Shown here: one piece after another, positions 1,322-1,986 of the stretch
Numbering within the stretch: the stretch's first letter is position 1
Layout of the letters: the number at the start of each line of letters is the position of its first letter
Origin: a virus
DNA length: 40,033 nt
Direction: 5' to 3' (one strand)
Virus genome (UHGV): UHGV-0235137
Position numbers and translations under genes: made by a program
The notes under the pieces: generated by a model
Database searches by the model: none
What the model saw: only the letters and a program-made list of their open reading frames with translations
What the model was told of the DNA's origin: nothing

Positions 1322-1403
1322 CGGGGCGTATCTCAGCGGTCTTCTAAACCGCCGTTAACCGAGTAAGTGGAGTATGCGGGTTCGAGTCCTGCCGCCTCGA
1401 CCA
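1322..1403 (+). tRNA. non-canonical tRNA-like gene; anticodon hairpin suggests Arg (UCU), but D-arm not identifiable
   Basis: 7-bp acceptor cggggcg/cgcctcg, canonical T-arm gcggg-ttcgagt-cctgc, CCA at 1401-1403, hairpin gcggt-ctTCTaa-accgc; only 7 nt between acceptor and that hairpin and 23 nt after it. Confidence 0.5.
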
Positions 1404-1418
1404 ATTTTGGATGAAATC

Positions 1419-1766
1419 ATGAAAACTTGTATTAGGTGCAAACTTAGCAAGGATGAAAGTGATTTCTACATGAAAGATGGTAGGAGAACTCATTCATACT
1501 GTAAAAAGTGTGTTAATGAGCAAACCATAGAAAGACAAAGAGCACTTAAACTTTCAGCTATTGAGTACAAAGGTGGGGTTTGTCATGATTGTGGTAAAAG
1601 GTATCATCCAGCAGTGTATGACTTCCATCATTTGAATCCTTCAGAGAAAGATTTTAACATTGGTCATAGAAAAAGTCTTAAGTTCTCTCAGGAGCTAAAG
1701 GACGAACTTGACAAATGTGTTTTGCTATGTTCAAATTGCCATAGGGTAAGACATGCAAAGTATTAG
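1419..1766 (+). CDS. HNH endonuclease (zinc-finger-containing, homing-type)
   Basis: ORF track 1374-1766 trimmed to the first ATG outside the upstream tRNA; CxxC pairs and HH...N...CxxCH motif (FHHLNP...CSNCHRVRH); paralog of 2684-3097. Confidence 0.8.
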   Translation: MKTCIRCKLSKDESDFYMKDGRRTHSYCKKCVNEQTIERQRALKLSAIEYKGGVCHDCGKRYHPAVYDFHHLNPSEKDFNIGHRKSLKFSQELKDELDKCVLLCSNCHRVRHAKY

Positions 1767-1903
1767 TTAGCAGATTGCTTAGACGACCTTATCGGGTCTC
1801 CGTGTAAGGAGGTGGTCTGTATCTCATGTTTTCCAGAACATGTAAATAATCTGAGAAGGGGCTTTACAGTGTTGCGAAAATACGGTAAGCTTCGAATTAT
1901 AGT

Positions 1904-1986
1904 ATGGGACGATGTTAAGACTCTAAGGCATGAGCAACGGCTTCCAACACCGTTTCAAAGGGGTTCAACTCCTCCGTCCCATGCCA
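1904..1986 (+). tRNA. non-canonical tRNA-like gene, probable tRNA-Trp (anticodon CCA) with about 7 extra nt in the D region
   Basis: acceptor atgggac/gtcccat, anticodon hairpin acgg(c)-ttCCAac-(a)ccgt, T-loop ttcaact, discriminator G, CCA at 1984-1986. Confidence 0.55.

Follow-up and report, generated by a model that had tools for sequence, protein, structure and literature searches.

Positions 1322 to 1986 of the Felix O1-like phage genome UHGV-0235137, analysed here over its whole 40,033 nt (the window), hold two tRNA-like genes, which we call elements A and B, and between them an open reading frame for an HNH-type endonuclease (Table 1). Element A has only 7 nt (UAUCUCA) between its acceptor stem and its anticodon arm and 23 nt between the anticodon arm and the T arm; at 79 nt plus CCA it is full-sized. 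Element B reads ATGGGAC, GAUGUUAAGA, CUC-UAAGGCAU-GAG, an anticodon arm with U33-CCA-A37, a T arm and GUCCCAU-G-CCA. A sequence-only reading of the window had described the first gene as having 7 nt ahead of an Arg(UCU)-like anticodon hairpin and 23 nt ahead of the T arm, and the second as having a Trp(CCA)-like loop and about 7 extra nt ahead of a 3-bp D stem; element A reads exactly so, and in element B the excess is at least 7 nt.

Table 1. Parts of elements A and B and the reading frame between them (positions of the window)
Feature	Coordinates	Strand	Remarks
A, acceptor stem, 5' strand	1322..1328	+	CGGGGCG; partner 1393-1399; compensatory changes in 7/7 pairs (n = 59 sequences); 99.3% of cells paired
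A, connector	1329..1331	+	U-A-U; U and A invariant, third base U in 58/59
A, long-range D-stem-like helix, 5' strand	1332..1335	+	CUCA; alignment columns 11-14, paired with columns 39-42
A, anticodon arm	1336..1352	+	GCGGU-CUUCUAA-ACCGC; stem 1336-1340/1348-1352, loop 1341-1347, anticodon UCU 1343-1345
A, 7-nt bulge	1353..1359	+	CGUUAAC; lies between the anticodon stem (3' end) and the long-range helix (3' strand)
A, long-range helix, 3' strand	1360..1363	+	CGAG
A, 12-nt joiner	1364..1375	+	UAAGUGGAGUAU; D-loop-like A-A-N-Y-G-G-A, then GUAU, into the T stem
A, T arm	1376..1392	+	GCGGG-UUCGAGU-CCUGC; 4/5 pairs changed on both sides
A, acceptor stem, 3' strand, and 3' end	1393..1403	+	CGCCUCG-A-CCA; strand 1393-1399, discriminator A1400, encoded CCA 1401-1403
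HNH-type endonuclease reading frame	1419..1766	+	Between A and B; Pfam HNH; Felix O1 homologue annotated as HNH endonuclease
B, acceptor stem, 5' strand	1904..1911	+	Read as 8 bp with 1975-1982; 7-bp core 1904-1910/1976-1982 perfect
B, enlarged connector	1912..1920	+	AUGUUAAGA; 2 nt here in a normal tRNA
B, D arm	1921..1934	+	CUC-UAAGGCAU-GAG; middle pair U-A becomes A-U in the Mooglevirus group
B, anticodon arm	1936..1954	+	5 bp 1936-1940/1950-1954, C1941.A1949 mismatch, 7-nt loop UUCCAAC, anticodon CCA 1944-1946
B, variable region and T arm	1955..1974	+	Variable region 1955-1959; 4-bp T arm 1960-1963 / loop 1964-1970 / 1971-1974
B, acceptor stem, 3' strand, and 3' end	1975..1986	+	Strand 1975-1982, discriminator G1983, CCA 1984-1986

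The endonuclease gene and the array

The endonuclease reading frame starts 16 nt past element A and ends 137 nt ahead of element B; its Pfam HNH match (E=0.0085, 16.7 bits) falls under the curated cut-off of 21.4 bits. It is an optional gene, absent from many Felixounaviruses, and its place is taken differently by lineage: at least three HNH types (that of the window and two HNH_3 types, in 7t3/L035 and in Riker), as well as other reading frames, begin 10-26 nt downstream of element A. The adjacency to an HNH gene pointed out by the sequence-only reading is thus real, with different HNH families at the same spot in different phages. Homing endonucleases typically target conserved functional genes, so that such a neighbour is expected for a real tRNA gene, and the arrangement looks like the usual insertion of homing endonucleases beside conserved tRNA genes, not like a part of the function of the RNA.

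The array is otherwise rearranged, the Arg(ACG)-ORF48-Gln-Leu block of Felix O1 being deleted. It also holds, at 527-666, a tRNA-like, non-decoding module laid out as closing stem, V hairpin, T arm, capped acceptor-like stem, D arm and closing stem, a circularly permuted gene layout whose 'anticodon' hairpin is not conserved. At permissive thresholds, Rfam returned no family for this module and no other family for element A or B.

Covariation in the element A family

Element A belongs to a family of 59 distinct sequences from 90 loci. In the alignment of the 59, 94.8% of cells are paired and 19 of the 21 pairs have changed on both sides, including all five pairs of the anticodon stem; none of 500 shuffles matched the observed values, and slid controls reached only 35-47% paired. 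G.U pairs are frequent (28 at pair 55-71, for example), and the structure is therefore specific to the RNA of the + strand. The T arm, 98.6% paired, carries a UUCRANY loop (UUCGAGU, UUCGAAU and similar), and the anticodon loop, with its U33 and a purine at position 37, is CUUCUAA in 54 sequences, CUUCUAC in four and UUCCUAA in one. The discriminator is G or A in 55/59 members; CCA is encoded in 40/59 and absent from 19/59. Within the joiner only the N and Y positions, which match positions 16 and 17 of a D loop, vary, all others being invariant. The bulge follows a C-N-U-U-A-A-N consensus across the family, and its UUAA, which was preset in most of our search patterns, is still present in the matches of a pattern that left it free.

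The sequence-only reading had element A lacking a D-arm. There is indeed no D hairpin, but 1332-1335 and 1360-1363 form an equivalent of the D stem whose strands enclose the anticodon arm, and the 23-nt segment contains a D-loop-like GG-A motif. Covariation proves this D-stem-like helix, with pairs 12-41 and 13-40 formed in all 59 sequences and both sides changed in 10 and 15 of them, respectively. The helix was tested with a metagenome scan that chose variants by the 3' strand alone (column 40 not G) and left the 5' connector free; in 15 of 15 distinct variants so chosen, column 13 had changed to match column 40, and many had also changed at 12/41 and 14/39. At least 10 different helix sequences are known. 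C11-G42 is invariant, and no helix variant at column 42 came up when viral contigs were scanned. A1335.C1360, a mismatch in this phage, is a Watson-Crick or wobble pair in 16 relatives.

Pairing of the CUC strand with a second GAG (1370-1372) was dropped because the variants compensate at the first. A mini-hairpin within the 23-nt segment (columns 38-40/47-49), predicted by RNAalifold from the first 40 sequences, was rejected as well, having 33 unpaired cells and no double changes when placed on all 59. The pattern TATCTCA-N5-CTTCTAA-N5-C, intended for canonical relatives, gave extra matches that proved to be chance matches in coding DNA.

A proposed permuted tRNA core

Element A shares with the cloverleaf a 7-bp acceptor stem with an N73-CCA end, a T arm and an anticodon arm, and departs from it in the D hairpin: only 7 nt separate the acceptor and anticodon stems, and the partner strand of the D-stem equivalent follows the anticodon arm. 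Strand 1332-1335 leads without a break into the anticodon stem, like positions 22-26 of a normal tRNA. Since both a D-loop-like motif and a long-range D-stem equivalent are present, all parts of a cloverleaf are there and only their order is permuted. The chain would run from the acceptor stem through U-A-U into CUC-A (in the usual order, the 3' half of the D stem) and the anticodon arm, and then through the 7-nt bulge into the partner strand C-GAG, the D-loop-like U-A-A-N-Y-G-G-A, G-U-A-U and the T arm. In this order, the 5' half of the D stem and the D loop have moved as one block past the anticodon arm, which they normally precede.

ARAGORN makes no call at element A in the window, calls only 1 of 66 family loci and, with segments in native order, calls none of the 59 sequences in isolation; re-ordered in silico, all 59 are called as a 76-nt tRNA-Arg with the joiner accepted as D loop. 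The Rfam tRNA model (RF00005) scores element A at 31.7 bits against a gathering score of 29, and reaches this score only with the D arm left out of the alignment and an insertion of 20 nt in the variable region. No standard cloverleaf with other boundaries emerged from the covariance-model check, and both elements lie where the sequence-only reading placed them.

The helical stack of element A is predicted to consist of the 5-bp anticodon stem, one mismatch layer, 3 bp and a U.U layer, the same layer count as in a cloverleaf (5 + 26.44 + 4). Putative equivalents of U8, A14, R15/Y48, G18, G19 and A20 can all be found; connector 1329-1331 would supply a U8-like base, an A21-like base and the U that forms the U.U layer with 1364, and the joiner residues may take up the remaining tertiary roles, with U8-A14, G18/G19-T-loop and A15-U48 as predicted contacts. 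Given the matching layer count and these core equivalents, we infer that element A folds into an L shape, in a model whose tertiary positions are invariant and so lie outside the reach of covariation, their invariance being imposed in part by the search patterns.

Predicted arginine identity, genomic slot and distribution

The anticodon is UCU in 58 of the 59 family members and CCU in the one other, which lies in an array already holding canonical ACG, CCG and UCU genes; looser relatives of the same layout have ACG and a shorter bulge. The identity set of E. coli ArgRS comprises C35, U/G36, A20 and A/G73, with A20 read within a normal D loop. C35 and U36 are invariant in 59/59 sequences, the ACG relatives have C35-G36, with C35 at C1344 of element A, and an invariant G-G-A is present at 1369-1371, within the joiner and outside any closed D loop, in which A1371 would be the A20-like base.

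Most loci of the family have the element inside or adjoining a tRNA array. Arg-ACG genes are common there, and a canonical Arg-UCU gene accompanies the family member in only 3 of 66 loci, a co-occurrence that fits redundancy and also fits a non-decoding role. In Mooglevirus and in phage M719, a canonical tRNA-Arg(UCU) gene occupies exactly the position of element A, with flanks that are homologous up to the gene borders; the one gene substitutes exactly for the other. ARAGORN finds no canonical Arg tRNA in the window, where AGA makes up 173 of the 378 Arg codons (46%) of the long reading frames. The genome paper on Felix O1 had already remarked that AGA is over-used while its tRNA is seemingly missing (PMC3185647).

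The family is phage-restricted. It occurs in Felixounavirus, Asteriusvirus, Mydovirus, Justusliebigvirus, Sugarland-like phages and many uncultured viral contigs; 185,579 species genomes gave only 4 matches, all on MAG contigs, and 5,426 complete E. coli genomes gave none.

Element B

Element B has CCA, U33, A37, G73 and A/G1-U72. Its nine variants come from Felixounavirus, Mooglevirus and Pectobacterium phages, and it was found in Ounavirinae only. Six pairs are changed on both sides and 95% of cells are paired, figures from a small sample of a single subfamily in which the compensatory changes may stem from few independent events. Four of the five anticodon-stem pairs are among those changed on both sides, loop positions 32 and 38 vary in concert (C..A to U..C), and T-arm pair 57-71 switches from G-C to U-A. 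Element B does have a D hairpin, with a connector of 9-10 nt ahead of it. The 9-nt connector is invariant in 9/9 variants, including those of Pectobacterium phages at 76% identity, and the variable region is only 4-5 nt long.

When the T stem is read as 5 bp, it consists of four standard pairs and an invariant A.C. Element B would be better read with an 8-bp acceptor stem and a 4-bp T stem, in which the A.C mismatch is replaced by G1911-C1975, a pair that can form in 9/9 variants and, both columns being invariant, shows no covariation. The irregularity that the sequence-only reading placed in the D region of this gene is upheld, and refined to an enlarged connector, together with a probable 8/4 arrangement in place of the mismatched T stem.

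ARAGORN does not call element B, even after 7-8 nt are cut from the connector, and Rfam has no match to it at E<=10. A loose search pattern gave mostly chance matches. There is no other Trp tRNA in the array. Element B is probably a Trp(CCA)-type tRNA with an 8/4 acceptor/T arrangement and an enlarged connector between acceptor and D stems; its irregularity is milder than that of element A and partly known already.

Discussion

We consider it likely that element A is a functional Arg tRNA(UCU) with a permuted core, reading AGA and probably AGG, and that element B is a phage tRNA-Trp(CCA). The transcript of element A would be processed by RNase P, charged by host ArgRS through C35, U36, the A20-like A and A/G73, and would supply AGA, the Arg codon most used by the phage yet rare in the host. 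That so odd a design is kept in many unrelated phages points to a probably working, non-cloverleaf tRNA. Whether the family as a whole is a widespread natural class of permuted-core phage Arg tRNAs, charged by host ArgRS and used on ordinary bacterial ribosomes, is a larger claim, to which we give even chances.

Among functional tRNAs, pseudogenes and tRNA-derived RNAs, the three possibilities that the sequence-only reading had named, covariation and conservation support the first for both elements and argue against pseudogenes. Decaying tRNA genes or scars of homing-endonuclease rearrangement, functionless as RNA, could explain why standard gene finders reject both elements, why both adjoin an HNH gene and why the array is rearranged in other respects, for instance by loss of the Felix O1 block. 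Across unrelated phage families, however, element A keeps 83-90% identity over its full length, with compensatory changes maintaining its four helices around an invariant core, and the stems of element B are likewise held down to 76% identity. Such a pattern is foreign to pseudogenes. For element A the pseudogene reading is already essentially refuted by covariation, and for the two elements together we find it barely credible. Conservation as DNA, with element A serving as the recognition or homing site of adjoining endonucleases, spreading horizontally with them and pairing only incidentally as RNA, would account for the several HNH types that start just downstream in different lineages and for the high identity shared by unrelated phages. 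A recognition site would not, however, tolerate free change of 19 base pairs under a requirement for complementarity, nor would it favour G.U pairs, which read as C.A on the opposite strand. Many family members lack a neighbouring endonuclease gene, and the adjacency is expected in any case of conserved functional genes. We regard this explanation as very improbable.

Element A might also act as a tRNA mimic or decoy and not as an adaptor in translation; its Arg(UCU)-type anticodon arm and its acceptor/T minihelix would then be kept for binding or soaking up a host or phage factor, such as ArgRS, a modification enzyme or a defence nuclease that targets tRNAs. Cleavage of tRNAs by defence systems, at anticodon loops, D loops or acceptor stems, has been documented, as has counter-defence by phage tRNAs (PMC12916289, PMC10264068), and element A is confined to virulent phages. 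The anticodon loop is constant almost letter for letter, which a nuclease decoy would also need, and the three loci with a canonical Arg-UCU gene and the presence of the non-decoding module at 527-666 in the same array would suit a decoy too. Against this, element A takes the slot that a canonical tRNA-Arg(UCU) holds in sister genera, a gene of its family is usually the sole UCU gene of large arrays, and the anticodons of the family (UCU, CCU, ACG) complement the other Arg genes of those arrays. Moreover, element A retains the number of helix layers and every invariant residue of the tRNA core, features superfluous for a decoy of an anticodon nuclease. We think a decoy role unlikely, while allowing it a real chance.

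As a probable arginine tRNA, element A compares most directly with canonical tRNA-Arg(UCU), such as E. coli argU and the syntenic Mooglevirus gene. Both have a 7-bp acceptor stem, a 5-bp T stem with a UUCRANY loop, a 5-bp anticodon stem with an identical CUUCUAA loop, A/G73, an encoded CCA and G-G-A in a D-loop-like stretch, and both sit in the same slot. Element A differs in having no D hairpin, its D-stem strands lying 28 nt apart around the anticodon arm, in having its D-loop-like segment between that helix and the T arm, and in its extra 7-nt bulge. D-armless mitochondrial tRNAs, for example metazoan mt-tRNA-Ser(AGY), resemble element A in having no D hairpin between acceptor and anticodon stems, a short 5' connector and an effectively longer anticodon helix (PMC4013460, PMC7609411). 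By contrast, they have lost both D stem and D loop, are shorter and rely on adapted mitochondrial factors, whereas element A keeps a D-stem equivalent, a GG-containing D-loop-like segment and full size and, if it works, must use ordinary bacterial enzymes and ribosomes. The permuted tRNA genes that Soma et al. reportedly described in Cyanidioschyzon merolae in 2007 are said to place the 3' half ahead of the 5' half and to yield a normal mature tRNA through a circular intermediate. They share with element A a non-standard order of tRNA segments in the gene; unlike them, element A has its acceptor strands at the normal ends and is permuted internally, so that the mature RNA would itself be permuted and splicing-type processing need not be invoked.

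The closest match for element B is the class of irregular 8/4 tRNAs (allo-tRNA-like; Mukai et al. 2017, PMC5389517; review PMC7609411), which also occurs in phage tRNA clusters. These combine 8 bp in the acceptor stem with 4 bp in the T stem (12 bp altogether), as element B may do with G1911-C1975, and some of them share its extra unpaired stretch between acceptor and D stems (PMC7609411). The described species are of Ser, His, Cys and Sec types, and in the allo-tRNAs and selC* tRNA-Cys the variable arm, the anticodon stem and the acceptor stem are described as long; element B differs in its Trp anticodon, its short variable region and the C.A mismatch at the loop end of its anticodon stem. 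In vitro, E. coli enzymes failed to charge comparable irregular 8/4 tRNAs that carry an extra loop (PMC7609411). The module at 527-666, as distinct from elements A and B, resembles YrlA-type bacterial Y RNAs with a tRNA-like module (PMC4201824) in the order of its parts and differs from them in having no Rfam match.

To our knowledge, the cloverleaf is treated as universal outside mitochondria. A statement in a 2024 paper has it adopted by all known bacterial tRNAs (PMC11551756), and our literature search turned up no account of phage tRNAs that lack a D hairpin or are permuted internally. The csRNA 'DNAVirus_2961', given in one account as overlapping an ARAGORN tRNA-Arg call only at times, is a possible earlier sighting (PMC10690425). 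If a conserved permuted family does fill the AGA-decoding role, then more than one chain topology can give the L shape, and element A would be the first non-cloverleaf elongator tRNA at work in bacterial translation. Because ARAGORN and most deposited annotations miss genes of this family, phage tRNA repertoires are under-counted, the "missing" AGA tRNA of Felix O1 being an example. Element A would also offer a natural test of what ArgRS, RNase P, EF-Tu, modification enzymes and the ribosome need of the D region. The rearranged D region might persist by escaping host tRNA-targeting defence nucleases or other recognition that depends on the D arm; the design of element A is a possible orthogonal scaffold, and it may be relevant to the contest between phage tRNAs and the defence systems that cleave tRNAs.

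A family of tRNA-like RNAs in phage tRNA arrays

The window belongs to a Felix O1-like myovirus (Felixounavirus), whose first 5000 nt (1-5000) share 92-97% identity with SP22, Felix O1, wV8-type phages and many others, and it carries the phage's tRNA array at 1-4700. ARAGORN and Rfam each report 19 tRNAs here, none of them an Arg or Trp gene except the weakest Rfam match, at 1322-1400. The sequence-only reading had described two tRNA-like genes with proper acceptor stems and T arms and aberrant D regions, elements A and B, and both sequences, when re-read, agree with that description. 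Element A reads CGGGGCG-UAUCUCA-(GCGGU CUUCUAA ACCGC)-23 nt-(GCGGG UUCGAGU CCUGC)-CGCCUCG-A-CCA. It receives no ARAGORN call, and the Rfam tRNA model accepts it at 31.7 bits (gathering score 29) only with the D arm deleted and 20 nt inserted in the variable region.

Searching with 1300-1420, blastn recovers element A at full length and 83-90% identity in unrelated phages, among them the Asteriusvirus jumbo phages PBECO4 and 7t3 (annotated 'tRNA-TERM' in the latter), Sugarland/Riker-type Klebsiella phages ('tRNA-OTHER'), Mydovirus KpS8, Justusliebigvirus (outra, VEcB) and an Ounavirinae phage deposited as Listeria phage LPML1. Homologues lie nearly always inside tRNA arrays, mostly without annotation. 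Together with pattern scans of IMG/VR, a metagenome collection and species genomes, we obtained 59 distinct 79-nt sequences from 90 loci. The 185,579 species genomes gave just 4 matches, all on MAG contigs, and the 5,426 complete E. coli genomes gave none; loci L401 and L402 hold further tRNA-like matches besides element A. Element A is a widespread, phage-only family.

Features of the tRNA array and of related loci
Feature	Location	Strand	Remark
Element A	1322-1403	+	Arg(UCU) type
Long-range helix of A	1332-1335 with 1360-1363		columns 11-14 with 39-42
Bulge of A	1353-1359		7 nt
GUUAA in A	1354-1358
GUUAA in B	1914-1918
Element B	1904-1986	+	Trp(CCA) type
HNH-type ORF	1419-1766		starts 16 nt past A, ends 137 nt short of B
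Hairpin directly upstream of A	1247-1320
Hairpin directly upstream of tRNA-Leu (2346)	2251-2350
tRNA-Lys(UUU) genes	811-886; 2431-2506
Permuted-cloverleaf fold	527-666	+
Arm-sharing units	15-85; 431-519; 522-664
Inverted repeat upstream of tRNA-Lys (811)	663-806		22-nt arms around 100 nt
Site lacking the Arg(ACG) block	3426-3432
Arg(ACG) block in Felix O1 (L001)	4241-5178
ACG relative of A, locus L061	2689-2763	+
ACG relative of A, locus L391	3852-3928	-
Looser UCU relative of A, locus L041	13348-13426	+

A covarying long-range helix

Counting sequences rather than independent evolutionary events, we find 95-99% pairing in the acceptor, anticodon and T stems of the 59 members, with both-sided changes at all acceptor pairs, all anticodon pairs and 4 of the 5 T-stem pairs. 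None of 500 shuffles reached the observed values, and sliding the partners lowered pairing to 35-47%. Because G.U pairs are frequent, the structure is specific to the plus-strand RNA.

Within the first 40 sequences the 7-nt connector after the acceptor stem and the 23-nt segment are almost invariant. A 3-bp mini-hairpin proposed by RNAalifold within the 23-nt segment of these sequences was rejected on the full set of 59 (33 unpaired cells, 0 double changes). Since we suspected pairing between CUC in the connector and the first GAG inside the 23-nt segment, the metagenome collection was scanned for members in which column 40, the first G of GAG, is not G, leaving the connector free. All 15 distinct sequences recovered show the complementary change in column 13, and many are also changed at 12/41 and 14/39, yielding CUUC/GAAG, CAUC/GAUG, CGUC/GACG, CUGA/UCAG, CAGU/ACUG, CUGC/GCAG, CCGU/GCGG and CACA/CGUG. 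Across the 59 sequences, pair 11-42 is invariantly C-G; pair 12-41 is U-A in 49, A-U in 6, C-G in 2 and G-C in 2; pair 13-40 is C-G in 44, U-A in 9 and G-C in 6, and never unpaired; pair 14-39 forms a standard pair in 16, most of the others having A.C. In the window this helix surrounds the anticodon arm and the bulge.

With a covariance model built on this structure, members score 82-101 bits and canonical tRNAs at most 33 bits. Among the intermediates are two RNAs with the element A layout but an ACG anticodon, so the design seems to be linked to arginine. These two, at L061 and L391, share its connector, helix and GG-A layout with shorter bulges. In the looser UCU relative the connector diverges, reading UAUGCCG, and ARAGORN calls this RNA only as a 98-nt oddity.

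A proposed permuted core

We infer the following mapping onto canonical tRNA positions, and its tertiary model. After the acceptor stem, an invariant U and an invariant A would resemble U8 and A21, and CUC-A continues straight into the 5' anticodon-stem strand as do positions 22-26 of a normal tRNA. The partner strand, (C)GAG, is followed by U-A-A-N-Y-G-G-A, a stretch that varies at only two positions, those corresponding to D-loop 16 and 17; it would represent A14-R15-N16-Y17-G18-G19-A20 of tRNA-Arg, and the canonical Mooglevirus tRNA-Arg gene has AAACGGA there. The search patterns account for part of the invariance seen across the core. The final U of G-U-A-U, before the T stem, would be placed as Y48 facing A15. 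The stacked layers, 5 (anticodon stem) + 1 + 3 + U.U, would match the canonical 5 + 26.44 + 4, the single mismatch layer being A.C, or C.U in a subfamily with a 4-bp helix. Relative to the cloverleaf, the block of D-stem 5' strand plus D loop would have been shifted from the 5' to the 3' side of the anticodon arm, and element A seems, on this model, to retain everything needed for the L shape. To illustrate the mapping, the segments were re-ordered by it in silico and six bulge nucleotides dropped; ARAGORN then called 59 of 59 sequences as standard 76-nt tRNA-Arg (58 UCU, 1 CCU), versus 0 of 59 in native order.

The pentamer GUUAA occurs in both elements one or two bases 5' of the strand opening the D-stem or D-stem-like helix, with UAAG after that strand; this may reflect chance or a structural module that the two have in common.

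Decoding tRNA or decoy

Five lines of support suggest that element A acts as the phage's putative tRNA-Arg(UCU). In its anticodon loop, CUUCUAA, it agrees with canonical tRNA-Arg(UCU). C35 and U36 never vary within the family, and 55 of 59 members have G or A as discriminator. A canonical Arg-UCU gene accompanies it in only 3 of 66 loci, Arg-ACG being common, and canonical ACG, CCG and UCU genes are already present in the array of the sole CCU member. In Mooglevirus (Mijalis) and phage M719, a canonical tRNA-Arg(UCU) occupies its exact slot, ~278 nt past tRNA-Ile, with flanks homologous up to the gene borders. Finally, the window encodes no second Arg tRNA, the Arg(ACG) gene known from Felix O1 belonging to a block deleted here, and AGA is the window's commonest Arg codon (173/378, 46%); in Felix O1, AGA was reported as over-used and its tRNA as seemingly missing (PMC3185647). 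The main rival, a plausible one, is that element A is a decoy or mimic: known defence nucleases cleave tRNAs in the anticodon loop, the D loop or the acceptor stem (PMC12916289), and phage tRNAs have been proposed to evade such nucleases (PMC10264068).

The missing block, tRNA-Arg(ACG)-ORF48-tRNA-Gln-tRNA-Leu, sits between two tRNA-Leu copies in Felix O1 and SP22, and its absence leaves element A as the sole Arg-type gene seen in the window. The two tRNA-Lys(UUU) genes differ only in the acceptor stem; Table 1 of the Felix O1 genome paper lists Lys(CTT) at the position of the second (PMC3185647).

HNH genes and other elements of the array

As the sequence-only reading had it, an HNH-type ORF adjoins both elements. 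Many Felixounaviruses lack it, element A being joined directly to sequence from window 1767 onward. Endonuclease-type ORFs directly 3' of element A vary by lineage (HNH in the window, HNH_3 in 7t3/L035 and Riker, other ORFs at loci L019 and L037), and many members have none. These look like free-standing homing endonuclease genes settled next to a conserved gene; they may explain its horizontal spread, and they do not explain the RNA-type covariation.

The two long hairpins give weak microRNA-precursor-type Rfam matches based on shape alone (30 bits for the second); Mooglevirus conserves the first, and SP22 has lost part of it. Further upstream, the minimum-free-energy fold of 527-666 is a 'permuted cloverleaf', closed by AGACCGUU/AACGGUCU plus CUUA/UAAG and enclosing first the hairpin UUUCU-CCGGUAA-AGAAA, then a perfect T arm, next a 7-bp acceptor-like stem with a 4-nt loop cap (ACUCGGC-AGAC-GUCGAGU) and last the D arm GUGU-AAUGGUA-GCAC. 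In Mooglevirus and M719 the capped stem shows covariation (ACCCUUC/GAAGGGU; ACACG/CGUGU). Because the loop of the first hairpin is not conserved, this is not a decoding tRNA; it has no Rfam match, and its V-T-AS-D order matches YrlA-type Y RNAs (PMC4201824). The three arm-sharing units have a common left arm, CAGAAGACC(GU/AA)-UUCAGCAA, and right arm, AAAAC(AC/UU)GGUCUGGC, able to pair and showing compensation from GU/AC to AA/UU; of the three, 522-664 alone contains the tRNA-like module. The arms of the inverted repeat, 95% complementary, still pair in Mooglevirus despite sequence changes.

Element B

Element B reads AUGGGAC-GAUGUUAAGA-(CUC UAAGGCAU GAG)-C-(anticodon arm, U33-CCA-A37)-(T arm)-GUCCCAU-G-CCA, with no ARAGORN call and no Rfam match even at E<=10. 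Its homologues, 9 distinct sequences, are confined to Ounavirinae (Felixounavirus, Mooglevirus and, at 76% identity, Pectobacterium phages). In the 8 gap-free sequences, counted as sequences rather than independent events, 95% of cells are paired, with both-sided changes at 6 pairs: the middle D-stem pair (U-A to A-U), four anticodon-stem pairs and T-stem pair 57-71 (G-C to U-A). In the anticodon loop, positions 32 and 38 co-change (C..A to U..C) while U33, CCA and A37 stay constant, and the connector GAUGUUAAGA is invariant. Read with a 5-bp T stem, it has an invariant A.C 'mismatch' at the stem base; pairing G1911 with C1975 would remove this and give an 8-bp acceptor and a 4-bp T stem. It is the sole Trp-type gene of the array, and its G73 and A/G1-U72 are also found in E. 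coli tRNA-Trp. From these sequence features we regard it, with moderate confidence, as a functional but irregular tRNA-Trp.

Relation to known tRNAs

A passage of one recent paper describes all known bacterial tRNAs as cloverleaves (PMC11551756). In the literature searched, tRNAs lacking the D hairpin came from mitochondria only, irregular prokaryotic tRNAs were of 8/4 and 9/3 kinds, and no internal permutation like that of element A was described. A large-scale viral structured-RNA screen lists a candidate that overlaps an ARAGORN tRNA-Arg call only sometimes (PMC10690425) and may be the same family. The 8/4 tRNAs known from bacteria and their phages are Ser, His, Cys and Sec types; some carry an additional loop that separates the acceptor and D stems, and the allo-tRNA and selC* tRNA-Cys groups have a long variable arm (PMC5389517; PMC7609411). 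Against the literature searched, element B would be a new member close to this irregular class, and element A is probably a tRNA with a new topology.
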